This document shows positions 23,213 through 49,809 of a stretch of DNA of 64,000 bases, piece after piece. The notes below the pieces were generated by a model. That model saw only the letters and a program-made list of their open reading frames with translations, was not told the origin of the DNA and did not search any database. The position numbers and the translations under genes are program-made. Source of the stretch: an uncultured Acidimicrobiia bacterium (GTDB lineage: Bacteria > Actinomycetota > Acidimicrobiia > Spongiisociales > UBA11373); the NCBI GenBank assembly GCA_964633975.1, contig CAZWKX010000001.1, positions 63,969 through 127,968 on the forward strand, in the 5' to 3' direction. The first letter of the stretch is position 1. The number at the start of each line of letters is the position of its first letter.

Positions 23213-26200
23213 TCAGCTCCGGCGTCCCCAGTGTGCCCAGTCCCGGCTGTGGATTCCCTTCACCTCGTGTGGCCAGGAGCGGAAACGGCGGGCGACGAGA
23301 TTGGTGACCCCGTCGCGGTGCTCGAGCACCCCCTCGACCACAACCCCGACGGCGCGGCGGGCAACCTCGCGGTGCGCCTGCCACACATCGGGAAGCACGA
23401 TGACGTTGAGGATTCCGGTTTCGTCCTCGAGGTTGAGGAAGATCACCCCCTTGGCCGTCATCGGACGCTGGCGATGGGTGATCACGCCCCCCACCGTCAC
23501 CCGCCTGCCGTTGCCACCGCTCCCGATGGCGGAGGCGATGGCCAGACATCCCCGGCCCTCCAGCCACTCGCGGAGGAACTCGACGGGATGATGCACCGAG
23601 ATCCCCGTCGACCACAGATCGGCCCGGGTCGACTCGACCTCGGTCATCGGCTCCAGCGGCGGGGCGTCGACTCCCTCGGCTAGGGCAAGGCGCCCCGGGC
23701 TCATGCCGGCGAGCGCCCCGGCCGCCCACAGGCCCTGGCGACGCTCCACCCCCAGCGCGGAGAGGGCGCCGGAGGCGGCCAAGCCTTCGAGGCCCTTGAC
23801 CGCCAGGCCGGTGCGCTGCGCCAGATCGACCACATCGGTAAAAGGCCCGCCGAGGAAACGCGCGGCTTCGATACGGGCGATCTCGGCCTCACCCAGGTTG
23901 CGTACGTAGCGAAGCCCCATGCGCACCGCCGTCGCCAAGCGGATGGGGTCGTAGTACGCCCCCCTCCCCCGCCGCCAGGTCATCCCGTAGTAGGTGGCGG
24001 TGTCCTCGGGATCGGCCGGATGCGGCACCACCGTGCAGTCGCCCGACGACTCGTTCACGTCGGGAGGCAGCACGACGACCCCGTGCCGACGGGAGTCCTG
24101 AACCAGCGAGTTGGGGCTGTAGAAGCCCATCGGCTGAGCGTTGAGAAGCCCGGCGAGCAGCTCGGCCGGCCAGTGGTACTTGAGCCAGGCCGACATGTAG
24201 ACGATGTAGGCGAACGACACCGAATGGCTCTCGGGGAAACCAAACGAGGCGAAACCCTGGAGCTTGTCCCAGATCTCGTCGGCGGCGGCGCCGGTGATCC
24301 CGTTGCCGGCCATGCCGGCGTAGGTCTCGGCCCGAAGCTTGGCCATCTCCTCTTCGGAGCGTTTGTGGGTCATCGCCTGGCGCAGGCGGTCGGACTGCCC
24401 GGCCGAGTAGCCGGCGCACACCCGGGCCAGCTCCATGAGCTGCTCCTGGAAGACGGGAACGCCCAGCGTCCTGCGCAGGATCGGCTCGGCGGCGGGATGC
24501 GGGTAGCGCACCGGCTCCTCGCCGTTGCGCCGGCGCAGGAACGGGTGCACCGAGTGCCCCTGGATGGGGCCGGGGCGGATGAGGGCCACCTCGATGGCGA
24601 GGTCGTAGAAGGTCTTCGGCTTCATGCGGGGCAGCGTGGCCATCTGAGCCCGCGACTCCACCTGGAAGACGCCCACGGTGTCGGCCTTGGCCAGCATCTC
24701 GTAGACCATCGGCTCCTGCGGCAAAGCCGCCAGGTCGACGTCGACTCCGTGCACGTCGGCGATGAGGTCGACGGTGAGATGGAGGGCGTTGAGCATGCCC
24801 AGGCCCAGGAGATCGAACTTGACGATGCCCATGGAGGCGCAGTCGTCCTTGTCCCACTGCAGCACCGAACGGTCCTCCATGCGCCCCCACTCCAATGGCA
24901 CCACCTCCCAGAGGGGCCGGTCGGCGATGACCATGCCCCCCGAGTGGATGCCGAGGTGGCGGGGGAAACCGTCGAGGCGTCGGCAGGCGTCGAGGATCAG
25001 CTTGCCGCTGAGCCCCTCCGGCAGATCCACGAACTCGGGGATCGCTTCGGTCCTGCGGGTGTCGAGGAACTTGGTGAGGCCGTTCACCTGAGCCTGGGTG
25101 AGGCCGAATGCCTTGCCCACGTCCTGGAGTACGGAGCGAGCCCGGTACGTGATCACGTTGGCCACCATCGCCGCCCGCTCCCGCCCGTAGCGCTCGTAGC
25201 AGTACTGGATGACCTCCTCACGCCGCTCCGCCTCGAAGTCGACGTCGATGTCGGGAGGACGGCCCCGCTCGGCGGAGAGGAACCTCTCGAAGGGCAGGGC
25301 GAGGCGCAGCGGATCGACCCGGGTGAGCCCGAGGCAGCGGCACACCGCCGAATCGCCGCCCGAGCCCCGGATCTGGCAGTAGATGTCCCGGCGGCGGGCG
25401 AACTGCACGATGTCCCATACCACAAGGAAGTAGCCGGGGAAGCCAAGGTCTTCGATCACCCCCAGCTCATGATCGAGGCGGGCGATGGCCCGGGGATCGA
25501 CGCCGCCGGGCCCGTCGCCCGGATACACCTCGACGGCGCCCCGGAAGGTCAGGTGGCGCAGGTACTCCATCTCACCGAGGAAGGCGCCTGGCATGGGAAA
25601 GTCCGGAAGGCGTGGCGCCACCAGGGAGAGGTCGAAGGCGAGAGTGGCCCCCAGGTCGGCGGCACGCTCCACCGCCCCCGGATAGCGGAGGAAACGGCGG
25701 GTCATCTGGTCGGGCGACTTCAGGTAACGCTCGTCCGTCGCCGGCCAGAACCCGTGTCCGCCGTTGAGGGAGCGGCGGCCTCCGATAGCAGCGAGCACCT
25801 CGGCGAGATCGGCCTCGGAGCGGTCGTGGTAGTGCACGTTGTTGGTAGCCACCAGGGGAAGGCGCAGGCGGGCGGCCACCTCGGCGAGCACGTCGTTGCG
25901 GTTGTCGTCCTCGGGCATGGCGTGGTGCCACAGCTCCACGTAGAGCCGGCCGGGGAAGATTTCGCGGAGCCGGGCCGCTGCTCGCATCGCCGCATCGAGG
26001 TCGCCGTCCTGCGCGGCCCGAGGCACCGCCCCACGCCGGCACCCGGTGAGGGCGACGAGGCGGCCGGCGGACGAGGCCTCGGCGAGCTGGCCCTCGTCGT
26101 AGACGGGCCGTTCCTTCTCGCCGCGAAATTGGGCCCGGGTGACCAGCCGGGAGAGGGCGGCGTAGCCCGCCGGGTCGGGCGCCAGCAGCACGAGATGCTC

Positions 26201-26434
26201 GAGGGACTCCCGGTCGGGATTGCCCAGCGCCACCTCGGTTCCGTACACCGTGGCCAGCCCCACCTCCTGTGCCGCGGTGCGGAATTTGGGCGCTCCGTAG
26301 AAGCCGTTGTGGTCGGTGATGGCCAACGCCTCGTAGCCGAGATCGGCGGCACGCCGCACCAGGTCGTGCGGGTGTGAGGACCCGTCGCGAAACGAGAAGT
26401 TGGAGTGGCAGTGCAGCTCGGCGTAACGGGTCAT
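23213..26434 (-). CDS. dnaE2: Error-prone DNA polymerase III alpha subunit DnaE2 (ImuC)
   Basis: Start taken at MTRYAELHCHSNFSFRDGSSHPHDLVRRAADLGYEALAITDHNG (PHP domain). About 1073 aa, typical DnaE2 length. The six-frame ORF extends 19 codons further upstream across the LexA box, so it was trimmed. Confidence 0.9.
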   Translation of the reverse strand: MTRYAELHCHSNFSFRDGSSHPHDLVRRAADLGYEALAITDHNGFYGAPKFRTAAQEVGLATVYGTEVALGNPDRESLEHLVLLAPDPAGYAALSRLVTRAQFRGEKERPVYDEGQLAEASSAGRLVALTGCRRGAVPRAAQDGDLDAAMRAAARLREIFPGRLYVELWHHAMPEDDNRNDVLAEVAARLRLPLVATNNVHYHDRSEADLAEVLAAIGGRRSLNGGHGFWPATDERYLKSPDQMTRRFLRYPGAVERAADLGATLAFDLSLVAPRLPDFPMPGAFLGEMEYLRHLTFRGAVEVYPGDGPGGVDPRAIARLDHELGVIEDLGFPGYFLVVWDIVQFARRRDIYCQIRGSGGDSAVCRCLGLTRVDPLRLALPFERFLSAERGRPPDIDVDFEAERREEVIQYCYERYGRERAAMVANVITYRARSVLQDVGKAFGLTQAQVNGLTKFLDTRRTEAIPEFVDLPEGLSGKLILDACRRLDGFPRHLGIHSGGMVIADRPLWEVVPLEWGRMEDRSVLQWDKDDCASMGIVKFDLLGLGMLNALHLTVDLIADVHGVDVDLAALPQEPMVYEMLAKADTVGVFQVESRAQMATLPRMKPKTFYDLAIEVALIRPGPIQGHSVHPFLRRRNGEEPVRYPHPAAEPILRRTLGVPVFQEQLMELARVCAGYSAGQSDRLRQAMTHKRSEEEMAKLRAETYAGMAGNGITGAAADEIWDKLQGFASFGFPESHSVSFAYIVYMSAWLKYHWPAELLAGLLNAQPMGFYSPNSLVQDSRRHGVVVLPPDVNESSGDCTVVPHPADPEDTATYYGMTWRRGRGAYYDPIRLATAVRMGLRYVRNLGEAEIARIEAARFLGGPFTDVVDLAQRTGLAVKGLEGLAASGALSALGVERRQGLWAAGALAGMSPGRLALAEGVDAPPLEPMTEVESTRADLWSTGISVHHPVEFLREWLEGRGCLAIASAIGSGGNGRRVTVGGVITHRQRPMTAKGVIFLNLEDETGILNVIVLPDVWQAHREVARRAVGVVVEGVLEHRDGVTNLVARRFRSWPHEVKGIHSRDWAHWGRRS

Positions 26435-26451
26435 GGAACCCTCCAGTGTAA

Positions 26452-26467
26452 TCGAACATATGTTCGA
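26452..26467. promoter_or_regulatory. LexA/SOS box (actinobacterial Cheo-type) upstream of dnaE2
   Basis: Perfect palindrome TCGAACATATGTTCGA (TCGAAC-N4-GTTCGA) 18 nt upstream of the dnaE2 ATG. Followed on the coding strand by the SD-like GGAGGG. Confidence 0.7.
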
Positions 26468-26496
26468 CCACACTGGGATAGCCCCGGCCATACGCC

Positions 26497-26680
26497 GGAA
26501 ACGAGCACCACCTTGCCGGCGTGTCCGCCGCGCTCTAGCAGCTCGTGAGCACGAGCGGCCTCAACCAGGGGGATGCGTTCTGCGACCAACGGCTTGAGCC
26601 GGCCGGCTTGCCTGAATGGCCAAAACAGGGCCAACAAGTCGGAGCCACCGAGCGGTAGCCAATAGGTCATACCTACGGTA
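26497..26680 (-). pseudogene. C-terminal remnant of a zinc-type/quinone oxidoreductase (MDR family) gene
   Basis: The reverse frame encodes ...LPLGGSDLLALF...KPLVAERIPLVEAARAHELLERGGHAGKVVLV, the characteristic MDR C-terminus. No N-terminal ~270 aa anywhere nearby. The frame reads on through the LexA box without a proper stop. Confidence 0.4.
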
Positions 26681-26690
26681 GGATGCTGGT

Positions 26691-26915
26691 ATGAAGTTGA
26701 GTGTGAGCCTGCCTGAGGAAGCCGTCGAGTTCCTCGATCGATACGCCCAGGCCCGGGGGTACAAATCCCGATCGGCAGTGGTCCACAGAGCGGTCCGCTT
26801 GCTGCGCACCACGGAGCTGGGAGACGCCTACGTCGATGCATGGGACGAGTGGTCGGACTCCGACAACGCCGACGTATGGGATGCCACGGTGGGCGACGGA
26901 CTGGCGCACGGCTGA
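26691..26915 (+). CDS. Ribbon-helix-helix antitoxin (MazE/PemI-like)
   Basis: 74 aa. MKLSVSLPEEAVEFLDRYAQARGYKSRSAVVHRAVRLLR = beta-strand plus two helices. Its stop overlaps the ATG of the toxin gene (TGATG). Confidence 0.7.
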   Translation: MKLSVSLPEEAVEFLDRYAQARGYKSRSAVVHRAVRLLRTTELGDAYVDAWDEWSDSDNADVWDATVGDGLAHG

Positions 26916-27262
26916 TGCTGCGAGGCGAAATCCGGCTGGTGGATCTCGATCCTGCCCGAGCCGGCGAGTCGGACAAACGCCGCCCGGCCGTCATCGTGTC
27001 GAACGACGGCGCCAACGCCGCAGCCGCCAGACTGGGGCGGGGAGTCGTCACGATCGTGCCCGTGACCTCGAACGTCGACAAGGTATACCCCTTTCAGGTG
27101 CTCCTCCCGGCTCAGGACTCGGGCCTCAGCCGTGATTCAAAAGCCCAGACGGAACAGGTCCGGTCGGTCTCAGTCGACCGGGTCGGCGACAAGCTCGGGG
27201 CTCTGCCGCCTGATCTGATGCTCAATGTCGATCAGACGCTGCGGCTCCATCTGGCCCTGTAG
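26915..27262 (+). CDS. MazF/PemK family endoribonuclease toxin
   Basis: 115 aa from MLRGEIRLVDLDPARAGESDKRRPAVIVSNDGANA...VVTIVPVTSNVDKVYPFQVLLP...GLSRDSKAQTEQVRSVSVDRV, the canonical PemK/MazF pattern. Confidence 0.8.
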   Translation: MLRGEIRLVDLDPARAGESDKRRPAVIVSNDGANAAAARLGRGVVTIVPVTSNVDKVYPFQVLLPAQDSGLSRDSKAQTEQVRSVSVDRVGDKLGALPPDLMLNVDQTLRLHLAL

Positions 27263-27602
27263 CTCGGAGCGCCTTTCAGACATGCTCGGGACGGCGGGAC
27301 TGCAAAGTCGGCGGCACCGGGCGGGCTCAGTCCTGGATCACAGTCGGCGGGATGGCACCGCCGTCGAGAAGGGTGCGGTCGCCGAGCGGCGCAGCAAGCT
27401 CCGCTTCGGCGTCGAACATCAATCCGACGCCGGCACAGTATCCGGTGAAGGGCGCCTGTCCCGCCCGGCACACAACGAGGGAGGCTACGTTGGCTGCGGA
27501 TCCTCCTCTCGGCAGACCGGTGGCGTCGACCTTGGACGACGGCCACGATGTCACTCCGTTTGTGGGTGCATCGGGAACCAGATCGGCAGCTCCGGCCGTC
27601 AC

Positions 27603-28412
27603 ATGTCCATGAGCCATGGACGGCGCCACACGGCACTGCTCCTCCTCGTCGTGCTGGCGCTCGCCGCCTGCGGAACCGAAGAGCTGTACCCGTCCGGCGC
27701 GGCCGGCGATGAAACCGGCAGCAGCCCGCCCCTTGACGGCGCCTGGGTGCTGGTTGCCGCCAGCGTCGACGGGCAGACCCTGGCACTGAATGACCAATAC
27801 CGAGTCACCATGACGATCGATGGCTCCGCTATCGGCGGGCAGGCCGCATGCAACAGCTACGGCGGCTCCGTCTCAATCGACGACGGCGCCTTTGCCGTAG
27901 ACGAGATCTCCATGACCGAGATGGCTTGTGAGCCTTCCGTCATGGAGATCGAGTCGACGTTCCTGTCGGGTCTGGCCAGGGTCTCGGCCGCCACACGATC
28001 CGGTGACACTGCTTCTTTGACCGGTGAGGGGGTCGAATTCGTTTTCGATCTCCTCCCACCGGTGCCCACCGCCGAGCTGATCGGCACCACCTGGGTGCTC
28101 GACACCATCATCCAAGGCGACTCGGCCACCTCCACTGCCGCCGGCGCCGAACCCGCCAGGCTGCTTCTCAGAGCCGACGGGACGTTCGTGGGCGGCACTG
28201 GCTGCCGTGACCTCTCGGGCGAGTACATCGTGTCGGGCGACACGGTGCAGTTCACATCGTTCAGCACCCACGGCGAGTGTCCCAGCGAGATCGAATGGCA
28301 GGACGGCCAGGTGATCACCGTGCTCGAAGGTGGGTTCACCGTCGAGATCGACGGCGACCGGCTCACGGTGACCGCCTCGGGAGGCGAAGGGCTTTCCTAC
28401 AGATCGGGCTAG
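27603..28412 (+). CDS. Lipoprotein with tandem META/HslJ-like (DUF306) domains
   Basis: Start at MSMSHGRRHTALLLLVVLALAACG (lipobox). Two repeats with the GxxxCNxYxG-type motif (AIGGQAACNSYGGSVS; VGGTGCRDLSGEY). Confidence 0.7.
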   Translation: MSMSHGRRHTALLLLVVLALAACGTEELYPSGAAGDETGSSPPLDGAWVLVAASVDGQTLALNDQYRVTMTIDGSAIGGQAACNSYGGSVSIDDGAFAVDEISMTEMACEPSVMEIESTFLSGLARVSAATRSGDTASLTGEGVEFVFDLLPPVPTAELIGTTWVLDTIIQGDSATSTAAGAEPARLLLRADGTFVGGTGCRDLSGEYIVSGDTVQFTSFSTHGECPSEIEWQDGQVITVLEGGFTVEIDGDRLTVTASGGEGLSYRSG

Positions 28413-28484
28413 TAGCTCGCGCCGGTCCGGCAATCGTGACAACGATGGATCAAGCCGATACCGGTCCAGCGGCGGACGAACCCG

Positions 28485-28646
28485 TCAACTGATCCTGCCC
28501 TGCTTGCCCTCGGCAGCGCCTCTCTTCGCCCTCTTGTCGGAACGCTTCTGCTTGAGATCCTTCGCGGCCACCTTCTTGACGTTCTTGCCGCCTTTGTTCT
28601 TCGTGCCCATCAGTGCCTCCAGGCCGGCCACCGAGATGGCAGCCAT
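28485..28646 (-). CDS. Hypothetical small, highly basic, Lys-rich protein
   Basis: 53 aa MAAISVAGLEALMGTKNKGGKNVKKVAAKDLKQKRSDKRAKRGAAEGKQGRIS. Composition is protein-like but the family is unrecognised. Confidence 0.3.
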   Translation of the reverse strand: MAAISVAGLEALMGTKNKGGKNVKKVAAKDLKQKRSDKRAKRGAAEGKQGRIS

Positions 28647-28968
28647 ACCGCATTCTCTCACGCCGTGCCATCCGACAGGCCTCATTGGCCGCCCTGACCC
28701 TTCCACGACTCGAGCGTCCTTCGGGACCCCTAGCCTCACCGGCATGAGGCCTAACCCCTACGAGGAAGACGACTACCCCACCCCGCTCCTCCGTAGACGC
28801 GGCGTGCTCGGGACGGTTGCCATGCTCGCAGCCGGAGCGCTGCTCCTGCTCACGCTCATGTCGACGTGCACTGCTGGCAGGCGAGGACCGGCGCCCCCAA
28901 CAACCACGGCCCCCACCCTGGTGGCCCTGCCCGGGTAGCCCTCCAATCGGCTCCCGGCCGGCGAAGCG

Positions 28969-29925
28969 CTACCCGAACTGCCGGCTCCAGGCCCTTATCT
29001 CGTCGACCGAGGCATTCCCACCACAGAGGATGAGCACGACGTGCTCACCGAGGCGTCCGCGCAGCGCCTCTGCCGCCGCCAGCGTGCAAGACGCCGCCGG
29101 CTCGGTGAGCACCTTGGCCCGTTCGAGCAGGAACACGAGCGCGGCGAAAGCGGCAGAGTCGGGCACCACAACGACGTCCTCCAGCAGCTCCCGTGCCGCG
29201 GCCAGAGTCGCCTCGCACACCCACGGCGCGGCCAGAGTCTTGGCGATCGACGTGGGCTGCATCTCCACGATTTCGCCGGCGTCAAGAGCGCGCCTCATGG
29301 CATCGGCCCCTTCGGTCTCCACACCCCACATGCGCACCCCCGGCATGCAGGCCTTGAGAGCGGTGGCAACCCCTGCCATAAGACCGCCGCCACCGATGCT
29401 CACGAACACGTCGGTGGCGTCCGGGGCATCGGCGGCCACCTCGAAGCCGAGAGTGCCGTTGCCCGCCATCATGTACGGATCGTCGAAAGGGTGCATCAAG
29501 GCCAGGCCGGAGTCGGCGTAGGTCTCGGCGCGAGCGAAGGCATCAGCGATGGTGGGCACAATCTCGACCTCGGCACCGTAGGCCCGAGTGGCCTCTATGG
29601 AATGAGCCGGCGTGCCTTCGGGCATGAGGATCCTCGTCGTCACACCCATCTGGCCACCGGCAAAAGCGAGGCCCCGGGCGAAGTTGCCCCCGCTCACCCC
29701 GACCACGCCCCGCTCCCGCTGCTGCTCGGACAGATGAAGCAGCTCGTTGAAGGCCCCCCGAGGTTTGAACGATCCGGTCTTCTGGAACAGCTCCAGCTTC
29801 AGAGATGTGCGGGTCCCGAGGAACTCGCTCAGAGTCCGGCTGGAGACGAGCGGTGTCCGGTGCAGGCGGCCCGAGATCAGATCGAGCGCCTCCTCTATGT
29901 CGGCGAGGGTGATCGGTACGGTCAC
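28969..29925 (-). CDS. PLP-dependent threonine/serine dehydratase (threonine ammonia-lyase family)
   Basis: 318 aa. PLP-lysine motif LFQKTGSFKPRGAFN and glycine-rich GVSGGNFARG and SIGGGGL loops. Confidence 0.85.
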   Translation of the reverse strand: MTVPITLADIEEALDLISGRLHRTPLVSSRTLSEFLGTRTSLKLELFQKTGSFKPRGAFNELLHLSEQQRERGVVGVSGGNFARGLAFAGGQMGVTTRILMPEGTPAHSIEATRAYGAEVEIVPTIADAFARAETYADSGLALMHPFDDPYMMAGNGTLGFEVAADAPDATDVFVSIGGGGLMAGVATALKACMPGVRMWGVETEGADAMRRALDAGEIVEMQPTSIAKTLAAPWVCEATLAAARELLEDVVVVPDSAAFAALVFLLERAKVLTEPAASCTLAAAEALRGRLGEHVVLILCGGNASVDEIRAWSRQFG

Positions 29926-29967
29926 CGCGCCACCCTACCGCCCGGCTTCGGTGGCGCGCCTGCCATC

Positions 29968-31853: not shown

Positions 31854-32017
31854 GCCGCGCCCGGCCCGACGGCGCAAGGCTCAGGCCGCGGCGACCGCGG
31901 CGAGCCCTTCTCCCGTCCGGCCTGCTCGAGCGTCTTGGATTCGCCGCCGGCCGGCCCAGAACACAGCCATCTCCACATCGAGCCACAACCTACCGCAACC
32001 CGGCAAGCAGCGCGACC

Positions 32018-32323: not shown

Positions 32324-32361
32324 GGCGGGAGCCTGGAAGCGCCCTGATAGGCTGCCGACCG

Positions 32362-33135: not shown

Positions 33136-33189
33136 GGTGAATCTCCGCCATGGCGGCCCGGTTTCACGGAACGCGCGGTACGATTGGTC

Positions 33190-33292: not shown

Positions 33293-33293
33293 C

Positions 33294-40770: not shown

Positions 40771-40834
40771 GGCCGCCCTCCAAGCCGCCGTGAAGCCGGC
40801 GGGGCGGCTCCTCCTAAAAGCGCCGAAAGGCCCC

Positions 40835-41635: not shown

Positions 41636-41819
41636 CCGGACCTTCCCAAGGAGAGAGAATCAGGCTAGCCCTGATCACCACCGACGACGTCGCTGCCGTG
41701 GAGCCGCCTCCTCGGCTCCCCGACGTCACCGGCGGCTCGCTGGTGCCTTCTTCCTCGAGCGCTCCGCCGACACGCCAACGCCCGCCCCGGGCAACCAGAG
41801 GGCAGCGCCAGGCCGTTGG

Positions 41820-44102
41820 CTACTGGAGCCCGAGAAATTCCGCGACATCCGAGGCGACCCGATCCGCCTGCTCACGGGCGGCCGCCTCGGCGCCGCTCAG
41901 CTCCTCGCCCGGACCGAGCTGCCGCCGCAAATCGACGTAGATCTTCAGCTTGGGCTCGGTGCCGCTGGGCCGTACCAGGGCGCGGCCAGCCGCCTTGAAA
42001 TCGAAGATGACGAGTGGAGTCGCCGGGAGCCAGCGGGGGCGCCGGTCGGCGCCGGTGCGGAAGTCGGTGACCGAGCCGACTTCAAAGCCGCCGAGCACGG
42101 AAGGCGTGCGCTCCCCCAGCATCTCCATTGCGGCCGCGATCTCGTCGGCCCCCTTCTCGCCGGGCCGCACGACACCGAGCTGTGTGCTGACCCAAAGCCC
42201 ATGCTGCCGGTACAGCCGCTCCAGACGGTCGAGCACGGTCATCCCGAGTGCCCGATCGCCGGCCACCAGATCGGCGAAGACGACCGCGGCGGAGATGCCA
42301 TCCTTGTCCCTGACGAGCCGGCCCACCGTGTAGCCGAGAGCCTCCTCATACCCGAAGACGAACTCCAAGCCTTCGTCGGCCTCGAGATCGAGGGCGGCGT
42401 TGGCGATCCACTTGAACCCGGTGAGCGTGGCCTCACAGCGGGCCCCGTGGGCGGCGGCCACGGCGGCCAGCATCGGCGACGACACGATGCTGCTCGCCAC
42501 CAGCGGGGAGGCCGTGCCCGCGTAGTTTTCGAGCAGGAAATCGGCGAGGGCGATGCCGACCTGGTTCCCGGTGAGCTGCAGCCACCCCGAGGGGCCGGGG
42601 AGGCAGGCGGCGAGCCGGTCGCCGTCGGGATCGTTGGCCAGCACCAGATCGGCGCCGACATCGGCGGCGAGCGCGAGTGCCAGGTCGAGGGCCCCCGGCT
42701 CCTCCGGATTTGGGAAAGGCAACGTGGGGAAACGGCCGTCGGGCTCGGCTTGTTCCGGAACCGTGTGCACATCGGTGTAGCCGGCGGCGCCCAGAGCCTG
42801 CTCGGTCAGGCGTCCGGCCACACCGTGCAGAGGCGTGTAGACGATACGGAGATCACGGTCGGCCTCGACCTGCGGGCGCAGCTCGAGAACATCGCCGATG
42901 TACCGCTCGTACCACTGCGGCGGTATGGGCGCGGCTCGCTGACTCTCCCCATCGAGCACCCCGTCCCGCCGAGACACGTCGGCTGCGGCCCCCACCCGCT
43001 CGATCGCATCGGCTATCCCGGTATCCACCGGCGGAACGATCTGGGCCGCGTTGGCGTCGTACACCTTGTACCCGTTGTCCCTCGGAGGATTGTGACTGGC
43101 CGTTACCACGACGGCGGCCCGGGCCCCGAACACGCGGGCGGCGTAGGCCACCAGCGGCGTAGGCGCCGGCTCCTCGAAGTACCGCACGGGGAGACCGGCC
43201 GCGACCAGCACGCCAACCGTATCGGCGGCAAACGTCCGGCTACTGAGGCGGGCGTCGTAGCCGACGACAACGGGCCCGCCCTCGGGTCGATTCTCGAGGA
43301 GGTAGTCGGCCAGCCCTTTTGTGGTGCGGATCACCGTGGCCCGATTCATACGATTCGAGCCGGCCTCGACTGCCCCGCGGATACCGGCCGTTCCGAACTC
43401 CAGGATGCCGGCCATACGATCCGACAACTCATCGACCGCACCGAGCGCGATGAGACGCTCCAGCTGCGCCCGGGTCTCCGGGTCCGGGTCGCCGTTGATC
43501 CAGGCCCGCGTCTCGGCCAGCAGCGGATCCGGGAGCGCCGCCCGGAGCGCGCCGCCCACGGCTGCCACGCCCTCCTCGGTGGCCAAGTGAGTCATGGTGA
43601 CGTCGTGTGCCTCCAGGGGCAGGCGATCCACGACGAGCTCCGCCGGGACCACACCGATGCGGAGCGCGTCGGGGCGGAGGCGGGCCAAGAGCCGGTCGAA
43701 GTGCCCCGATCCCCGCCCCAGCCTCACACCCTGGGCGTCGAAGAGGACCCCAGGCACGAGCGCGACGTCGATCTCGGTCGGGTCTACCTTCCGCGCCGAT
43801 TCCCTCGGCTGCAGGAAACCTAGGTGGTGCCGCTCCATCGGATCCTCGAAAGGGTGCACGGTGAGCTCGCCACGCCTGGGGGTACGCGTCAAAAACGACT
43901 CCACCTCGAAGCGGAGTGCGGTGACATCAGGCTCATCGGGCAGAGGCTGGTAGAGAAGCACCCGTGCTCCAGGCAGGCCTCCCCAGCGACGCAGTCCGCC
44001 GACGATCTGGAGCGAGATGGCGTGAAGGTCGAGCTTGGACCGTGCGGCGCGCCCCCACTCTCGCCACTCGGCCTTGCTTGCTGCTGGTGGTGGCTGCGAC
44101 AC
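41820..44102 (-). CDS. Fusion protein: N-terminal 5-formyltetrahydrofolate cyclo-ligase (MTHFS) domain + C-terminal phosphomannomutase/phosphoglucomutase (alpha-D-phosphohexomutase)
   Basis: 760 aa single ORF. Residues ~1-210 carry the MTHFS motifs (LLYQPLPDEPD, ALVPGVLFDAQGVRLGRGSGHFDR). Residues ~215-760 carry the PMM/PGM motifs (GDPDPETRAQL...FGTAGIRG; active site TASHNPPRDNGYKVY; GFKWI; GYEEALGY). Confidence 0.8.
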   Translation of the reverse strand: MSQPPPAASKAEWREWGRAARSKLDLHAISLQIVGGLRRWGGLPGARVLLYQPLPDEPDVTALRFEVESFLTRTPRRGELTVHPFEDPMERHHLGFLQPRESARKVDPTEIDVALVPGVLFDAQGVRLGRGSGHFDRLLARLRPDALRIGVVPAELVVDRLPLEAHDVTMTHLATEEGVAAVGGALRAALPDPLLAETRAWINGDPDPETRAQLERLIALGAVDELSDRMAGILEFGTAGIRGAVEAGSNRMNRATVIRTTKGLADYLLENRPEGGPVVVGYDARLSSRTFAADTVGVLVAAGLPVRYFEEPAPTPLVAYAARVFGARAAVVVTASHNPPRDNGYKVYDANAAQIVPPVDTGIADAIERVGAAADVSRRDGVLDGESQRAAPIPPQWYERYIGDVLELRPQVEADRDLRIVYTPLHGVAGRLTEQALGAAGYTDVHTVPEQAEPDGRFPTLPFPNPEEPGALDLALALAADVGADLVLANDPDGDRLAACLPGPSGWLQLTGNQVGIALADFLLENYAGTASPLVASSIVSSPMLAAVAAAHGARCEATLTGFKWIANAALDLEADEGLEFVFGYEEALGYTVGRLVRDKDGISAAVVFADLVAGDRALGMTVLDRLERLYRQHGLWVSTQLGVVRPGEKGADEIAAAMEMLGERTPSVLGGFEVGSVTDFRTGADRRPRWLPATPLVIFDFKAAGRALVRPSGTEPKLKIYVDLRRQLGPGEELSGAEAAAREQADRVASDVAEFLGLQ

Positions 44103-44105
44103 CGG

Positions 44106-45008
44106 CTAGCCGAAAAGTCGGGGGGCCAGGGCCTGAAGCTCCTCGGTCGTGGAGCCGAGCACCGCGTAGCCGGTCTCGTCGCGAATCTGTTCCACGTTGG
44201 CGGCGACGTCCTCAACGCTGAGAGGGCCATCTCCGGGAGCCTTGAAGTAGCCGGCGGTCCGCGCCATGAAGAAGCGGCTCACGTTGCCTCCGGCCACCGA
44301 CCAGACTTCCCCGCTGAACGGGCACTCCTCCGAGCAGAAGTAAGCCACCACCGGCGAGACCAGCTCGGGATCGAGCTTCTCCGCCACCGGGCCCAGTATC
44401 TGCTCGGTCATCCTGGTGCGGGCCACCGGAGCCAGCACGTTCACCTTGATGTCGTACTTGGCGCCTTCGAGTTTGAGGACGTTGGCGAGCCCGACGACTC
44501 CCATCTTGGCCGCACCGTAGTTCGACTGGCCGAAGTTGCCCAGGATGCCGGCGTTGGAGGTGGTCATGACGATGCGACCGTACGACTGAGCGCGCATGAC
44601 CTTCACCGCAGCCTGGGTCACGTAGAAGGCGCCTTTCAGGTGCACATCGAGCACAGCCTCCAGATCGGGCCAGGCCAAGTTGTGAAAGGCCTTGTCGCGT
44701 AGTATGCCGGCGTTGTTCACGAGGATGTCCACCCGTCCGTACTCCTCGACGGCCTTGGCCACGATACCCTCGCCCCCGGCCGGTTCGCCCACCGACGAGT
44801 AGTCGGCAACGGCGCGGCCTCCCGCTTCGACGATCTCGGCAACCACGTCGTCGGCAGGGCGAGCCTCCATGCCGCTTCCATCGGTAGCGACCCCTGGATC
44901 GTTGACCACGACGGCCGCTCCCCTCGATGCCAGCAGCTTGGCGTGGCTGGCCCCAAGCCCTCGCCCGGCACCGGTGACGATGGCGACGCGACCCTGGAAC
45001 CCGATCAT
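44106..45008 (-). CDS. SDR family oxidoreductase (MFE-2/HSD17B4 N-terminal-like)
   Basis: Start MIGFQGRVAIVTGAGRGLGASHAKLLASRGAAVVVND (TGxxxGxG). NAG and YxxxK region (SNYGAAK). Confidence 0.8.
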   Translation of the reverse strand: MIGFQGRVAIVTGAGRGLGASHAKLLASRGAAVVVNDPGVATDGSGMEARPADDVVAEIVEAGGRAVADYSSVGEPAGGEGIVAKAVEEYGRVDILVNNAGILRDKAFHNLAWPDLEAVLDVHLKGAFYVTQAAVKVMRAQSYGRIVMTTSNAGILGNFGQSNYGAAKMGVVGLANVLKLEGAKYDIKVNVLAPVARTRMTEQILGPVAEKLDPELVSPVVAYFCSEECPFSGEVWSVAGGNVSRFFMARTAGYFKAPGDGPLSVEDVAANVEQIRDETGYAVLGSTTEELQALAPRLFG

Positions 45009-45048
45009 CCCCAACCTCCTCGACTCTCCAAGCACTCCGCGGCCGAGG

Positions 45049-46254
45049 CTAGTCCGGTGGTGGCCGACGGTTCGAGAACGCTGCACGCAGAGCCGGCGCC
45101 AGGTCCCCGATGTCACCGACCACGACCGCCTCGAGACTCAGCCAGGAGGCCAGGTGCCCCAGCTCCGACACCAGCGGCGGCACGACTCGGGCCGCCTCCT
45201 CGCCCGGCTCGATGAAGGCCCCCGGCACGAGCAGCAGTCCGCGTTTGCGATCGGCCTTGACATCGACGCGGCCCACCAGGCGGTCTCCAAGGAGAAACGG
45301 CAGAACGTAGTAGCCCCAGCGCCGCATGGAGCGGGGCACGTAGATCTCGATGCGGTAGTGGAAACCGAAGACCCGCTCCACCCGATCCCGATTCCACATG
45401 ACCGGGTCGAAGGGGCAGAGCAGAGCCGCTGCCTCCAGCCGCCGCGGCACCGCCACCTCCGGATGCAGGTATGCGGGATGCCGCCAGCCCTCCACGTCAA
45501 CCAGCTCCAGGGCACCCTCGCCCGCCAGATCGTCGAGCGTGCGGCGGGCGGCCGGGAGAGGGAGCCGGTAGTAGTCGGCGAGGTCCGGCGCCGTTGCCAC
45601 GCCGCACGCCCGGGCCGCCATCAGCAGCAGGCGCCGATGCGCCTCCCGGCGCGGGACCGCCGGCGCCTCGAGGAACTCGGTCGGGATGACCCGCTCCGGC
45701 AAGTCGTAGCGACGGGCGAAGTTGCGCCGACCGGCGACGGCGAGCCTGCCGGTGGCAAACAGCCACTCCAGCGCGATCTTCCCCCGGTTCCAGCCCCACC
45801 ACGAGCCCCTGCGCTCACCGGGATCGGAGAGGTCGGCGGCGCTCACCGGGCCCAGCTCCCGCACCTCATCCAGCACCCGCTCCACATAGCCCGGGTGCTC
45901 CCGGTTGAGGCAGTCGACCCGGATCCACGGGCGCGTCTCGGCCATGCGGTGCCGGAACAGCGGGTAGTCCTCGATGGGCAGGAAGCACGCCTCGTGGCCC
46001 CAGTACTCGAACAGCAGACGACGCTCCTCGAAGGCACGCCACAACAGGCCGCGTTCGTGGTGGCCCAGCCGGGAGAACAGGGTCAGGTGGTGGGCGCGCT
46101 CGAGAACGTTCACCGAGTCGATCTGGAGAGCCCCGATGCGCCGCAACAGACGGCGCACGTGCCGCACGTCGACCCGGCCCGAGGAGCGGGTCTCGGCCAA
46201 GCCTTGTGCACCGAGGGCGATGCGCCGGGCGCGGTGCTGATCGACCCGTCTCAT
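45049..46254 (-). CDS. Winged-helix DNA glycosylase, AlkZ/YcaQ (HTH_42, former DUF1006) family
   Basis: 401 aa. QIDSVNVLERAHHLTLFSRLG, FEYWGHEACFLP and YVLPFLLGDRLVGRVD match the YcaQ/AlkZ family (recalled). Confidence 0.75.
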   Translation of the reverse strand: MRRVDQHRARRIALGAQGLAETRSSGRVDVRHVRRLLRRIGALQIDSVNVLERAHHLTLFSRLGHHERGLLWRAFEERRLLFEYWGHEACFLPIEDYPLFRHRMAETRPWIRVDCLNREHPGYVERVLDEVRELGPVSAADLSDPGERRGSWWGWNRGKIALEWLFATGRLAVAGRRNFARRYDLPERVIPTEFLEAPAVPRREAHRRLLLMAARACGVATAPDLADYYRLPLPAARRTLDDLAGEGALELVDVEGWRHPAYLHPEVAVPRRLEAAALLCPFDPVMWNRDRVERVFGFHYRIEIYVPRSMRRWGYYVLPFLLGDRLVGRVDVKADRKRGLLLVPGAFIEPGEEAARVVPPLVSELGHLASWLSLEAVVVGDIGDLAPALRAAFSNRRPPPD

Positions 46255-46369
46255 GACCTGGGGAGCTCTGGCGGCTCGGCGCTCACGACGAGCACCAGCC
46301 TCGTCCTGCTCCTATCGCGGCCCATGCCCGGCGCGGCCTTCCCTCGTACGGCCGGAGTAGCCTACCGGC

Positions 46370-47140
46370 ATGCTCAAAGCTCTGGGCACGATCGGCGCGG
46401 CCATCCGCACCGGGGTGGGGCTCACCATCGCGGTGCTCTACACGGCCATGGTCGCCAGCTACCTGATCGTGCTCACCAAGTTCCGCCCCACCTCACAACA
46501 CGTGGAGACCGTGGCACGCAGCTGGGGTCGGGTCTTCTGCGCCGCCTGCGGGGTTCGTGCCACCTTCGAAGGTCTCGAACACGTAGACGACGCCGGCTCC
46601 TACGTCTTCGTCTCCAACCACATCTCGGACCTGGACGCCCCGTTCCACCTCGCCTTCGTGCCCGTTGGGATCCGCTTCTTGGCGAAGAAGGAGCTGTTCA
46701 AGATCCCCGTGTTCGGCCGCGCCATGCGAGCCATCGGCATGGTGGAAACCGATCGCCAGGCCCGCGCCGCCGCTCACCGCAAGATCAATGAGCAGGTGGC
46801 CCGGGTGGTGAAGATGGGACGATCGCTCATCATCTACCCGGAGGGAACCCGCTCCCGCGATGGCGAGCTGCACGATTTCAAGAAAGGGGCCTTCCGCATC
46901 GCCATCGAAAACAACATGCCGGTGCTTCCCATCGCCATATCCGGCCTATACGAGATCTGGCCGCCTGGGTCGAAGATCATTCGGGGAGGCCGAGCCAAGA
47001 TGGTGTTCCACGAACCCATTCCCACGTCCGGCCTTGGGACCGACGATATCGACGCACTACGAACCCAGGTGCATGAGATCATCGGCACGGCCTTCGAGCG
47101 CATTCGCCACCAGGTGTCGGCGCCGGCACGTCGCCGCTAG
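46370..47140 (+). CDS. plsC: 1-acyl-sn-glycerol-3-phosphate acyltransferase (PlsC family)
   Basis: 256 aa with the HX4D motif VSNHISDLD, FLAKKEL and YPEGTRSRDG blocks. Confidence 0.85.
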   Translation: MLKALGTIGAAIRTGVGLTIAVLYTAMVASYLIVLTKFRPTSQHVETVARSWGRVFCAACGVRATFEGLEHVDDAGSYVFVSNHISDLDAPFHLAFVPVGIRFLAKKELFKIPVFGRAMRAIGMVETDRQARAAAHRKINEQVARVVKMGRSLIIYPEGTRSRDGELHDFKKGAFRIAIENNMPVLPIAISGLYEIWPPGSKIIRGGRAKMVFHEPIPTSGLGTDDIDALRTQVHEIIGTAFERIRHQVSAPARRR

Positions 47141-47736
47141 ACCTGAGACCTCTTCGCCACCACGATGTTGTCGATGGCATCCTTGGTCTCGCCCTCCACG
47201 GGACGCAGCACCTCCTCGGCGCGGATCACCTCGAGCTCCCCGCCGATCGCCCCCACGACGTCGCCGGCGGTATACAGGTGCTCCGGGTTGTGGGGCCCTC
47301 CGATGCCATCCCTGAGATTGCGCAGATCATGGCCGACGACGACGAGGTGCCCCCCGGCGGCCACCGCTCCCGCCGCCATCCGCCACAAGGCGATCCGCTC
47401 CCGTGCCGACGGGTGCAGGTAGGCGACGACCACAAGATCGAACACCAGCGGGGGCGGCGTCCACTCCCGCAGATCGGCCACGATCCATTCGACGGAGACC
47501 CCCCGCAGCTCCGCCAGCCTCCGCCCCCGGTCGATGGCGACACCGGACCACTCGACGGCCGTTACCTCCCAACCCTGCTCCGCCAGCCATACCGCGTTGC
47601 GGCCCTGGCCGGCGGCCAGGTCGAGGGCTCTCCCGGGCTCGAATGCGGCAACCGCCTCGGCTAGGAACCGATTAGGCGGCACCGCGTTGGCGAACTCCTG
47701 CTCGTGATAGCGCCGATCCCAGTGCTCCCGATCCAC
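47137..47736 (-). CDS. Class I SAM-dependent methyltransferase (TehB-like)
   Basis: About 200 aa from GTG: VDREHWDRRYHEQE...ALDLAAGQGRNAVWLAEQGWEVTAVEWS (motif I). Lies 28 nt downstream of the imuB stop on the same strand. The longer six-frame ORF overlapping imuB was discarded. Confidence 0.65.
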   Translation of the reverse strand: MDREHWDRRYHEQEFANAVPPNRFLAEAVAAFEPGRALDLAAGQGRNAVWLAEQGWEVTAVEWSGVAIDRGRRLAELRGVSVEWIVADLREWTPPPLVFDLVVVAYLHPSARERIALWRMAAGAVAAGGHLVVVGHDLRNLRDGIGGPHNPEHLYTAGDVVGAIGGELEVIRAEEVLRPVEGETKDAIDNIVVAKRSQV

Positions 47737-47764
47737 GAGAGTAAGGCTACCGGCACGGCCGTCT

Positions 47765-49207
47765 TCAGTCGTAGATGCCCACCAGGTAGCAGTCTCCTTC
47801 GCGGACCTCACAGAGGAATGCGCCGGCCGAGGTAACGATCTGGTAGCGGTCGGCGTGCTGCTCGCCATCCCACCAGCGCCCGGTGCGCCGCCAGGGCCCG
47901 GCCCAGTTGCGAACCTCTTCCCAGCGGCTCCCCAGCCGTATACGAACGGGGAACCCGTCATCCCACTCCACCTCCACCCGGCAGGGCGGGGGCACGAGCG
48001 CGGGTGCGGGATCGGGCAGGCGGCCCGGCCAAGGCGCTTTCGGGTCGTGCACCGGTTGCGGTGCAGGCTCACCCCAACGATGCCAGCGGACCCGCTCGCC
48101 CGGCTCCCTGCCTCCCTGCGGCACCGCTTGGAGCACGGCGTCGGGCCCCACGAGGACCTGGGCGCGAGCCAGGGCGCGGCGGGCCCCCACCTCCGAGGCG
48201 GCATCCTCGCCGAAACACATCTGACGCCCCGAATCGGAGCGGTCACCGGGAACGAGTCGCAACCGGGCCATGCCCCCGGGAATACCGCCCCCCTCCACCC
48301 AGGCCCGCAGCTGCCACCGGACCCGCTCTGCTATCTCACCCTCGGTGAAAGGATCGGCGCTGCGCCAGGTGCGGGACCGAACCTCACCTGCCGCCGACAT
48401 GGCCTCCACCACCACGAGGTGCGGAATCCCCGGGCCGACGGCTTCGAGGAGCCGGTGTGCCAGCGACTTAGCGGCGAACGCCGCCTGCTCCAGGTCCCGC
48501 AGCGGCGGGTCGAAACGCTCCTCGACCGCCACATCCTGCGGCAACGATCGGGGAGACACCTCCCGGTCCTCGCCGCTGGCCAGCCGATACGCTTCCAGGC
48601 CGATTCTGCCGAAGCGGGACGCCACGGCCTCACGAGGCAGCGCCGCCAGATCCCCCAGCGTGCTGATCCCCAGCCAACGGAAGGTATCGACGATCTCGGA
48701 CACCCCGAGTGTGGCGATGTCGAGGCCGGCGATGAAACCCTCGGTGTCGGCGACCATGGTCTCGCCTTCGGCCGCAGCGCGAGCGGCAAAAGGGCCGTCG
48801 GCGAGGCCGAGCCGGGCGCCGGCTGCCACCTCCCTTACCGCTCGAGCCACGCAGGCAACGAGTGGCTCCTCGCCCCCGTAATAGCGAACGGCTCCCGACA
48901 CGTCGAGGAAGAGCAGCCCCGGTTCGGCCACCTCGACACCGGGAGCCACCGTCTCCACGGCTCGCGCCACCGCCTCAAAAGCAGCCGCCTCGGCGCCGGG
49001 GTCGGCGGGCAGGGTGGCAACCGCCGGACATAGGGTCTCGGCGCGGCGACGCGGCATGCCCACCCGGACGCCGGCGGCGACGGCCAACGCGTTGGCTGCA
49101 GTCACCATCCCGTCGGGGCCAACCACCTGGCAGGGCTCATCCGACGGCGCGTCCGGCCTCCGTAGCGGCCAGCTGGGAAACCACACGCACAACGTCCGTG
49201 CCCTCAT
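47765..49207 (-). CDS. imuB: ImuB (Y-family polymerase-like mutasome subunit)
   Basis: 480 aa. N-terminal MRARTLCVWFPSWPLRR...AANALAVAAGVRVGMPRRRAETLCP is the hallmark ImuB start. UmuC-like fold. Directly downstream of imuA'. Confidence 0.85.
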   Translation of the reverse strand: MRARTLCVWFPSWPLRRPDAPSDEPCQVVGPDGMVTAANALAVAAGVRVGMPRRRAETLCPAVATLPADPGAEAAAFEAVARAVETVAPGVEVAEPGLLFLDVSGAVRYYGGEEPLVACVARAVREVAAGARLGLADGPFAARAAAEGETMVADTEGFIAGLDIATLGVSEIVDTFRWLGISTLGDLAALPREAVASRFGRIGLEAYRLASGEDREVSPRSLPQDVAVEERFDPPLRDLEQAAFAAKSLAHRLLEAVGPGIPHLVVVEAMSAAGEVRSRTWRSADPFTEGEIAERVRWQLRAWVEGGGIPGGMARLRLVPGDRSDSGRQMCFGEDAASEVGARRALARAQVLVGPDAVLQAVPQGGREPGERVRWHRWGEPAPQPVHDPKAPWPGRLPDPAPALVPPPCRVEVEWDDGFPVRIRLGSRWEEVRNWAGPWRRTGRWWDGEQHADRYQIVTSAGAFLCEVREGDCYLVGIYD

Positions 49208-49760
49208 CCTCCACCTCGTAGAGCCTTTCGATGCCTCCCACCTCTTTGCCGGCGGCGCGCAGCGTAAGCAGACGCCGCACGATGCGGCCGTGGCCGGAAT
49301 CGGCGCCTTCCCAGCGCACTCCTTCAGCGACGAGCTTGAGCTGGGCCAAGCCGGAGGGGAGGCTGCCGCTCAGTGGGCGCAGGATGAGCATGGCGCGACG
49401 GGCCCGCGCCAGGGCTCCCAGACGCCGGAGCACGCCGCCGCCGACACCGGCCGGCACCTCTGCATAGACCGCGGCCAGTCCTTCGAGAAGGGCGGCGGTC
49501 ACCCGCCCCCAAGAATCCCTCTCGGAACAACGCACCACGACGAGGTGCTCTGGAGGTATGCCCGCTTCCCATGCGGCAAGCGGCGACAGCCAGCCCCGCA
49601 CGTCGACAAACGCCACCGCGGCACCATGGGCGGGATCGGCCAACAGAGTCAGTCCGAGGCGGGTGAGCCCAAGTCCGGGAGAGCCGACCAGGCCGAGCAC
49701 CCGCCCCGGAGCCACAAGCGGCGCAGCTGCGCAACCCGCCGTCCACGCCCGCTCCAGCAT
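49137..49760 (-). CDS. imuA: ImuA' (RecA/SulA-fold mutasome subunit)
   Basis: 207 aa from MLERAWTAG...PGRVLGLVGSPGLGLTRLGLTLLA (degenerate P-loop)...EHLVVVRCS...AMLILRP. Overlaps the imuB start by about 70 nt. A LexA box lies 34 nt upstream. Confidence 0.7.
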   Translation of the reverse strand: MLERAWTAGCAAAPLVAPGRVLGLVGSPGLGLTRLGLTLLADPAHGAAVAFVDVRGWLSPLAAWEAGIPPEHLVVVRCSERDSWGRVTAALLEGLAAVYAEVPAGVGGGVLRRLGALARARRAMLILRPLSGSLPSGLAQLKLVAEGVRWEGADSGHGRIVRRLLTLRAAGKEVGGIERLYEVEDEGTDVVRVVSQLAATEAGRAVG

Positions 49761-49793
49761 GCCCAACGCTCCAGTGATGGGCCTCACATTGTA

Positions 49794-49809
49794 TCGAACA
49801 TATGTTCGA
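49794..49809. promoter_or_regulatory. LexA/SOS box upstream of imuA'-imuB (shared divergent region with DUF1028 gene)
   Basis: TCGAACATATGTTCGA, identical 16-mer to the dnaE2 box. The downstream context (..ACA.TG..CACTGGAG..ATG) is also similar to the dnaE2 leader. Confidence 0.7.

Follow-up and report, generated by a model that had tools for sequence, protein, structure and literature searches.

The imuA', imuB and dnaE2 genes

The window, meaning the whole 64 kb stretch of DNA from an uncultured Acidimicrobiia bacterium analysed here, carries three genes of a predicted SOS mutasome: imuA' and imuB, which overlap, and dnaE2, whose start lies 21.3 kb from the imuB stop codon. The two transcription units are on the same strand. 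The dnaE2 (imuC) gene (23213-26434, minus strand) encodes an error-prone C-family DNA polymerase of 1073 aa, which scores 1267.2 bits with the NCBIfam profile NF004225, 'error-prone DNA polymerase' (cut-off 939), whereas the DnaE1 equivalogs all remain below their cut-offs (NF004226, 725.8 vs 1002; NF005298, 674 vs 1260). Its Pfam domains are PHP, DNA_pol3_alpha, DNA_pol3_finger, HHH_6 and tRNA_anti-codon (OB), and the protein ends about 20 residues past the OB domain, without the tau-binding C-terminal extension. The closest database relatives carry the name error-prone DNA polymerase, and no DnaE1 was found in the 64 kb window. As the product passes NF004225 and fails every DnaE1 equivalog cut-off, the original prediction was right to call this open reading frame DnaE2 and not DnaE1.

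A longer dnaE2 reading frame, starting at ATG 26491 and running through the palindrome described below, was rejected, since the profile aligns from residue 2 of the version starting at 26434; it also disagrees with the starts of the orthologs, located about 11-18 nt after the palindrome (orthologs on long contigs were used for the DnaE2 comparison). An exact look-up in the contig index found neither the 1073-aa nor the 1092-aa version on record. Immediately upstream of dnaE2 are a mazEF toxin-antitoxin pair and a truncated Zn-ADH gene.

The imuA' gene (49137-49760, minus strand) encodes a predicted RecA-fold accessory factor of 207 aa, identified by NF058630, PF27531 and an alignment of homologs. 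The match to NF058630 ('repair_Rv3395c / ImuA'') has an E-value of 2.2e-15, but its 56.7 bits do not reach the cut-off of 65. A Pfam profile search of the ImuA' product gave no match; the precomputed Pfam assignment is PF27531 (MT3502_N), for the window's ImuA' and for all 120 listed homologs. The protein lacks the Walker A lysine: its P-loop-like segment reads GSPGLGLT, with a leucine where RecA has the lysine, and GxGLTRLG is conserved in an alignment of 25 ImuA' homologs. This ImuA' is probably of the Rv3395c type, with a predicted RecA-like fold devoid of a functional Walker A motif.

The imuB gene (47765-49207, minus strand; alternative start at 49192) overlaps the 3' end of imuA' by 56-71 nt and codes for a 480-aa homolog of Y-family polymerases, predicted to be catalytically inactive. 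The Pfam IMS domain is detected (E-value 1.7e-14) from profile position 23 only, and all the DinB equivalog models fall far below their cut-offs. The N-terminus reads (L)CVWFPSWPL where active enzymes have DMDAF, as in an active metagenomic DinB (VDMDAFYASVE). An alignment of 16 orthologs shows conservation of a GRQ(L/M)x(L/F) motif and of the C-terminal 110 aa or so (WAGPWR..GRWW..YQIVT..GVYD). The protein is predicted to be an inactive Y-family protein of the actinobacterial ImuB2 type; the family searches bear out the calling of both genes, imuB as an inactive Y-family homolog and imuA' as a probable member of the Rv3395c family. The two genes overlap not only in the window but also in 77 of the 80 related loci; in the remaining three, the sequence stops too soon after imuA'.

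Two identical palindromes

A perfect 16-bp palindrome, TCGAACATATGTTCGA, occupies positions 26452-26467, 17 nt 5' of the dnaE2 ATG, and the identical 16-mer recurs 23.3 kb away at 49794-49809, 33 nt 5' of the imuA' ATG. The second copy sits in a divergent intergenic region common to imuA' and a DUF1028 gene (49893-50777, plus strand). The two copies, located where they had been predicted, are the sole matches in the 64 kb window, even with up to 3 mismatches. Shuffled sequences give 0.07 expected matches, and at least two were obtained in 0/100 shuffles; chance is excluded because two perfect copies stand against this expectation. A free-spacer scan of the window with TCGAAC-N4-GTTCGA, allowing up to 2 mismatches, returned 7 further weak matches (2.7 expected), all with GC-rich spacers and none perfect.

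The proximity of each palindrome to its gene was correctly recognized, although the distances first given, 18 and 34 nt, are each 1 nt too long. The claim of similar leader contexts does not hold, as no identity past the box and one T is seen when the two upstream regions are aligned, i.e. similarity ends at 17 nt. The short sequence CACTGGAG is common to both leaders, but its distance after the box differs (+3 and +17); it overlaps a -10-like hexamer at dnaE2 and the Shine-Dalgarno GGAG at imuA', and it is not conserved in the relatives checked. The lack of similarity past the box therefore points to a conserved operator and not to a recent segmental duplication.

Of 80 Acidimicrobiia species, 78 have the box before imuA', 57 of the boxes in those loci being the identical 16-mer. 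Every separated dnaE2 examined has its own box (13/13), in contrast to the contiguous ones (0/2). Moreover, all perfect boxes in 1.21 Mb of sequence from 80 Acidimicrobiia species precede either imuA' or dnaE2. This phylogenetic footprint supports a function for the box.

Promoter geometry

A scan for E. coli-type promoter and terminator consensus sequences detected no promoter at either box and is uninformative at 68% GC; it was replaced by phylogenetic footprinting, so that the promoter elements given here are putative and derive from comparative conservation. At dnaE2, a putative -10 hexamer TACACT (TAnnnT; 26445-26450, minus strand) begins 1 nt after the box. At imuA'-imuB, the putative -10 hexamer TACAAT (49788-49793, minus strand) directly abuts the box, and a putative -35 hexamer TTGCAG (49812-49817, minus strand) is located 18 nt from it, the box filling the spacer. 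A TAnnnT hexamer stands at +0 or +1 after the box at 78/78 imuA' boxes and 13/14 dnaE2 boxes, for a background rate of about 0.0005-0.001 per position, and TTG is found at a spacer of 16-19 nt from the imuA' -10 in 67 of 78 relatives.

The dnaE2 ATG follows the putative -10 by 10 nt, which would give a leaderless or almost leaderless transcript; the distance from box to start codon is likewise about 11-18 nt in 13/13 separated dnaE2 genes of relatives. The exact transcription start is uncertain, because the GGAGG that precedes the ATG would be untranscribed under a leaderless model. The putative geometry of both promoters fits repression by occlusion.

The palindromes as LexA sites

The consensus TCGAAC-N4-GTTCGA was defined experimentally for LexA of Mycobacterium tuberculosis (PMC3381160), and both boxes of this Acidimicrobiia bacterium match it perfectly. 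In the M. tuberculosis LexA ChIP-seq, Rv3395c (imuA') is peak 1 and Rv3370c (dnaE2) peak 5; both genes show RecA-dependent induction, and mutation of the box derepresses Rv3395c (PMC3381160). A metagenome-wide scan for the exact 16-mer, in a taxonomically mixed sample (GC 0.27-0.77), placed it before a bona fide LexA gene and before genes for a UmuD-like S24 protein, an active DinB, dnaE2 and imuA'. The contig with the lexA gene belongs to another organism, and these matches support only a general SOS-box identity, not LexA autoregulation in Acidimicrobiia. With the agreement with the M. tuberculosis consensus and the retention of the box before imuA' and separated dnaE2 genes of relatives, the LexA reading of the original prediction stands: both palindromes are almost certainly LexA repressor sites, as predicted from their sequence and conservation, one for dnaE2 and one for imuA'-imuB.

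It is quite improbable that the palindrome is the site of another regulator, or a mere part of a conserved promoter. Pfam searches found neither lexA nor recA in the window or in any fetched locus, nor did tblastn of the window and the 87 loci L001-L087 with approximate E. coli LexA and RecA queries. In favour of such a reading are this lack of a LexA gene in the genome fragment, the fusion of the box to the -10 element, by which promoter function could explain part of the conservation, and the LexA-independent control of many mycobacterial damage-inducible genes (PMC3381160). However, the box agrees perfectly with an experimentally defined actinobacterial LexA consensus, is found at exactly the two loci whose M. 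tuberculosis counterparts are the top LexA ChIP targets, and precedes lexA and other SOS genes in metagenomic contigs. Moreover, in about 90 independent sites all 12 specified positions keep their dyad symmetry, a constraint beyond the needs of promoter function alone.

The split arrangement across Acidimicrobiia

With 21.3 kb measured between the two units and a box before each, the basic layout is as originally proposed. What does not stand is the view of a contiguous cassette as the normal form and of this genome as the exception. The synteny comparison with relatives suggested in the original prediction shows that the split is the class norm: dnaE2 is separated from imuB in 46 of 48 informative Acidimicrobiia loci, all from distinct species, and synteny of the intervening genes (PlsC, AlkZ, SDR, PGM, ABC transporter, TPK) extends throughout the class. 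Four long contigs carry dnaE2 18.6-27.1 kb downstream of imuA'-imuB on the same strand, and independent assemblies, among them a contig of 4.16 Mb, repeat the split order and orientation. A contiguous imuA'-imuB-dnaE2 with a single upstream box is found in two species (L066 and L075). A split has also been published for M. tuberculosis and M. smegmatis. The split layout is hence the normal, ordinary form in Acidimicrobiia, already known from M. tuberculosis.

In 36 of 57 loci, a gene for an AlkZ-like crosslink glycosylase follows imuB at a distance of 0.8-5.4 kb. Co-transcription of alkZ with imuB was considered and rejected, since the two genes are separated by a PlsC gene of opposite orientation and no box precedes alkZ.

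The two species with a contiguous cassette, as well as the mazEF pair and truncated Zn-ADH gene next to dnaE2, which show some local rearrangement, could suggest a fairly recent event specific to this genome, in which an insertion of about 21 kb broke up a contiguous operon and the operator was duplicated to rescue dnaE2 regulation. This history is very improbable and already largely refuted by the split in 46 of the 48 loci, the same-strand repetition of the layout on the four long contigs, the class-wide synteny of the intervening genes, the end of sequence similarity between the two box regions after 17 nt, and the identical layout in M. tuberculosis. Even less credible is an artefactual separation, through a chimeric contig or a misidentified replicative DnaE1: although the window derives from a metagenome and its exact DnaE2 protein is absent from the contig index, independent assemblies (the 4.16 Mb contig among them) share order and orientation, GC content is uniform across the region (0.66-0.71), and DnaE1 equivalogs reach at most 726 bits for cut-offs of at least 1002 while the DnaE2 model passes.

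Discussion

In M. tuberculosis, imuA'-imuB correspond to Rv3395c-Rv3394c and dnaE2 to Rv3370c (Warner et al. 2010, as cited in PMC6511836), the LexA regulon has been defined by Smollett et al. 2012 (PMC3381160), and the split of imuA'-imuB from dnaE2, with a LexA site at each half, is published for both M. tuberculosis and M. smegmatis (PMC6511836, PMC3919608, PMC3381160). The window contains the same three genes, with an ImuA' probably of the Rv3395c type and an ImuB predicted to be of the actinobacterial type, all on one strand, imuA'-imuB being upstream of dnaE2. Each half has its own TCGAAC-N4-GTTCGA box near or overlapping the transcription start (putative in the window), and the separation is comparable, the M. 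tuberculosis ChIP peaks being 26.8 kb apart and the window boxes 23.3 kb. The two boxes of the window are both perfect and identical, whereas the Rv3395c box of M. tuberculosis has one mismatch. The flanking and intervening genes also differ, those of the window being pnp-rpsO, PlsC, AlkZ, PGM, a thiamine ABC transporter and TPK. The DnaE2 of M. tuberculosis has a long N-terminal extension, which that of the window appears to lack. Finally, the hosts differ, an uncultured Acidimicrobiia bacterium with a system known from its sequence, as opposed to members of the Mycobacteriales.

The contiguous LexA-regulated imuA-imuB-dnaE2 cassette is that of Proteobacteria such as Caulobacter crescentus and Pseudomonas (Abella 2004, Galhardo 2005 and Erill 2006, as cited in PMC3919608 and PMC6511836). 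It shares with the window a RecA-like factor, an inactive Y-family protein and DnaE2 under LexA control (predicted in the window), but forms a single operon with one operator, belongs to the ImuA1/ImuB1 subfamilies and responds to a different LexA motif. E. coli umuDC (Pol V) is likewise a LexA-repressed, damage-induced translesion mutasome needing a RecA-type cofactor; in contrast, its catalytic subunit is the active Y-family UmuC and not the C-family DnaE2, and it is a single operon without ImuA' or ImuB.

Thus the region very probably encodes an actinobacterial SOS mutasome of the standard kind (ImuA'-ImuB-DnaE2), split as is typical of the phylum, with a LexA operator for each unit. The analysis establishes sequences, gene identities and, across about 80 species, a conserved box, -10 element and gene arrangement; LexA binding, damage induction, the transcription start sites and mutasome function in this organism are inferred. 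In the proposed mechanism, two units on one strand, imuA'-imuB and dnaE2 some 21 kb further downstream, would each be controlled by their own LexA operator. At imuA', the box would occupy the 17-18 nt spacer between the TTG -35 and the TAnnnT -10, so that a LexA dimer bound within the core promoter would sterically exclude RNA polymerase; at dnaE2, the box would abut the TAnnnT -10, with the start codon 10 nt further on and a leaderless or near-leaderless mRNA. Upon DNA damage, RecA-stimulated self-cleavage of LexA would derepress both units together, and DnaE2 would be made simultaneously with its accessory factors ImuA' and ImuB, so that it could perform error-prone lesion bypass.

The loose but persistent linkage of imuA'-imuB and dnaE2 (same strand, 5-27 kb, own boxes) is kept across Acidimicrobiia lineages whose ImuA' is only 53-65% identical to that of the window, and is mirrored in M. 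tuberculosis. That the linkage is itself under selection is a speculative and rather unlikely proposal; possible reasons would be that the mutasome is expressed and assembled in one place, or that both units reside in a single chromosomal domain. Alternatively, the linkage is a neutral leftover of synteny. As a lesser possibility, the recurrent AlkZ-like crosslink glycosylase could be functionally coupled to mutasome-dependent bypass.

These results are of little importance beyond annotation and will not surprise specialists: an uncultured Acidimicrobiia bacterium carries a split, predicted LexA-controlled ImuA'-ImuB-DnaE2 system, as does M. tuberculosis, where this system drives damage-induced mutation and drug resistance. 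The comparative gains are modest, namely that the split is a rule of the class, that operators stand at all the separated dnaE2 genes examined and not at contiguous ones, and that the operator appears to be part of the core promoter, in a highly regular geometry. Such findings may be of use for regulon prediction in uncultured actinobacteria.

Results

Mutasome genes

The ORF at 23213-26434 (minus strand, 1073 aa) reaches 1267 bits against the NCBIfam model NF004225 'error-prone DNA polymerase', whose cut-off is 939, while every DnaE1 equivalog model stays under its own cut-off. The original prediction of dnaE2 is therefore upheld and the alternative of a DnaE1 fails; the product carries PHP, polymerase core, fingers, HhH and OB domains. 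The imuA' gene (49137-49760, minus strand, 207 aa) had been given its correct start, in the frame of the ORF 49137-50294. Its product matches NF058630 'ImuA' / Rv3395c' with an E-value of 2e-15 and 56.7 bits, under the curated 65 bits, is assigned to the precomputed Pfam family PF27531 MT3502_N, and contains a P-loop-like segment, GSPGLGLT, devoid of the Walker lysine. An identical protein is encoded on JGI and Logan metagenome contigs, and the close homologs all come from Acidimicrobiia MAGs, which assigns the window to an uncultured representative of the class Acidimicrobiia (Actinomycetota). The imuB gene (47765-49207, minus strand) encodes an IMS domain whose alignment begins only at profile position 23, with CVWFPSWPL at the N-terminus, where the catalytic DMDAF motif would stand; the GRQ(L/M)x(L/F) motif and the C-terminal domain are both conserved. 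The imuA' and imuB genes share 56-71 nt (49137-49207 in the window), each being read there in a frame of its own, which suggests translational coupling. According to tblastn coordinates, most relatives have a comparable overlap of about 55-65 nt. Neither lexA nor recA was found in the window by Pfam searches and tblastn.

The two predicted LexA boxes

A motif scan of the window places the 16-mer TCGAACATATGTTCGA at 26452-26467 (box 1, at dnaE2) and 49794-49809 (box 2, at imuA'), exactly where it had been reported, with no third match when up to three mismatches are allowed. The expected number of matches is 0.07, and two or more occurred in none of 100 dinucleotide-preserving shuffles; with the 4-nt spacer left free and up to two mismatches, the extra matches in the window are all weak and have GC-rich spacers. 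After box 1 the minus strand continues T-TACACT-GGAGGGTTCC-ATG, and after box 2 it continues TACAAT-GTGAGGCCCATCACTGGAGCGTTGGGC-ATG, so that the measured distances from box to ATG are 17 nt (dnaE2) and 33 nt (imuA'), each differing by one from the initial values. The leaders, initially described as similar, align with no similarity beyond the box and one T; the conserved feature at these promoters is an operator and not a duplicated segment. The split pair of boxed units is real, and its functional annotation is sound.

Exact matches sampled across metagenomes place the 16-mer ahead of a bona fide LexA (LexA_DNA_bind and Peptidase_S24 domains), a UmuD-like S24 protein, an active DinB, a DnaQ-GIY-YIG protein, and additional dnaE2 and imuA' genes. 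These metagenome contigs lend indirect support to the 16-mer being a genuine SOS box. On many of the metagenome contigs (L088-L207), an ORF starting MFD or MFE begins at an ATG within the box (CATATG), as for LexA (L155), DnaE2 (L101, L106, L143 and L147) and DinB (L165), which suggests that leaderless SOS genes with the start codon inside the operator are common in actinobacteria-like organisms.

Gene arrangement in relatives

For the survey, 25 ImuA' homologs were aligned and one genome per GTDB species was scanned, yielding 80 loci from distinct Acidimicrobiia species, with flanks of at most 10 kb each, that were analysed by tblastn and motif scans. TCGAAC-N4-GTTCGA, with up to two mismatches, lies upstream of imuA' in 78 of the 80 loci, mostly as the identical 16-mer; the upstream DNA is absent from the other two. 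Across 1.21 Mb, all perfect boxes precede imuA' or dnaE2, and the remaining 16 matches each have one mismatch and GC-rich spacers.

Only two loci (L066 and L075) have dnaE2 directly after imuB (gap of 2-8 nt), without a separate box before dnaE2 and with a degenerate imuA' box, GCGAACATATGTTCGG. They belong to Candidatus Spongiisocius variivorans and a related MAG, and lack the pnp/alkZ neighbours of other loci. In nine loci dnaE2 lies on the same strand 5.5-6.4 kb downstream, each time behind its own box, with 11-16 nt between box and start codon at eight loci and 18 nt between box and ATG at the ninth (L009). No dnaE2 was found within at least 8 kb downstream in 37 loci. Distant dnaE2 genes were located through a DnaE2 homolog search, and four share a long contig with an imuA' locus, 27.1, 25.6, 26.8 and 18.6 kb from imuB, all on the same strand and all with a perfect box at the start. 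The 21.3 kb measured in the window is typical. The PlsC, AlkZ, SDR, PGM, ABC transporter and TPK genes keep their order in relatives; the intervening block therefore represents synteny of long standing rather than a recent insertion.

In Mycobacterium tuberculosis, where the LexA consensus is TCGAAC(N4)GTTCGA, Rv3395c and Rv3370c are peaks 1 and 5 of the LexA ChIP-seq, their coordinates being 26.8 kb apart, and both are induced in a RecA-dependent manner; regulation of Rv3395c, whose transcription start lies inside the box, is lost when the box is mutated (PMC3381160). These findings do not support the premise that actinobacteria normally carry one cassette, since the split prevails in our Acidimicrobiia survey and M. 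tuberculosis has split units, each a LexA ChIP-seq peak.

Promoter geometry

About 90 upstream regions were anchored on the box for comparison. TAnnnT occurs at +0 or +1 after the box in all 78 imuA' and 13 of 14 dnaE2 regions, where the background frequency is about 0.001 per position, and TTG stands 16-19 nt upstream of this hexamer in 67 of the 78 imuA' promoters. The putative imuA' promoter of the window reads TTGCAG, 18 nt, TACAAT; a scan for E. coli-type promoters, which uses the E. coli consensus, found nothing at either box. This spacing suggests that at imuA' the LexA box would occupy the spacer between putative -35 and -10 elements, whereas at dnaE2 it would abut a putative -10 element. 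The latter position, with a start codon 12-18 nt past the box, implies that dnaE2 mRNAs may be leaderless or near-leaderless. LexA bound at either box would then occlude RNA polymerase, and RecA-stimulated LexA cleavage would release both units together. LexA binding, damage induction and the transcription starts at both units are what we infer from the sequences.

Genomic neighbourhood

A truncated Zn-ADH/quinone oxidoreductase ORF (26431-27081, minus strand; PF13602, profile positions 70-134, the C-terminal half only) reads through box 1, and its end overlaps the start of dnaE2 in the sequence ATGA. A mazE (RHH) and mazF (PemK) pair lies over it (26691-27262, plus strand), and the region 26431-27262 resembles the remains of a gene next to an inserted toxin-antitoxin pair, immediately upstream of the dnaE2 promoter. 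On the other side, the 3' end of dnaE2 adjoins three tandem plus-strand paralogs in which PGA_cap domains are fused to RTX calcium-binding repeats (17900-19387, 19430-20929 and 21650-23206) and a subtilase with 9 RTX repeats (15561-17831, minus strand). PGA_cap is a capsule synthesis/metallophosphatase-like domain. In the relative L084, a PGA_cap/RTX gene (5035-6327 of that locus) is convergent with dnaE2.

Between the two units, 26.5-47.7 kb holds genes for a META-domain protein, a sulfotransferase, a GDSL hydrolase, thiamin pyrophosphokinase with an ABC importer, an acyltransferase, DUF2079, a GT2 glycosyltransferase, an SDR and PlsC acyltransferase. A single 760-aa ORF (41820-44102, minus strand) fuses a 5-formyltetrahydrofolate (5-FTHF) cyclo-ligase domain to a complete phosphoglucomutase/phosphomannomutase (PGM/PMM), with homologous matches in 45 related loci. 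An AlkZ-like DNA glycosylase gene (45049-46254, minus strand; PF06224, a family of enzymes unhooking interstrand crosslinks) lies 1.5 kb downstream of imuB, and a homolog follows imuB on its strand by 0.76-5.4 kb in 36 of 57 Acidimicrobiia loci (among L004-L083). An operon with imuB is ruled out because PlsC intervenes on the opposite strand and no LexA box was found at the AlkZ-like gene, leaving conserved synteny.

A distance of 83 nt separates box 2 from the ATG of a DUF1028 gene (49893-50777, plus strand) that is divergent from imuA'. Only contigs of the window's own organism show this neighbour next to imuA', and none of the 80 related species does; the gene probably lies outside the regulon, but could be co-repressed in this organism. 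Beyond it, on the far side of imuA', lie pnp, rpsO, ribF, truB, rbfA, infB, nusA, rimP and proS.

Discussion

The split arrangement is ordinary for Acidimicrobiia and already documented for mycobacteria. What is mildly novel, and nothing else, is that same-strand linkage at 5-27 kb persists across deep divergence, together with a regular operator-in-promoter geometry.
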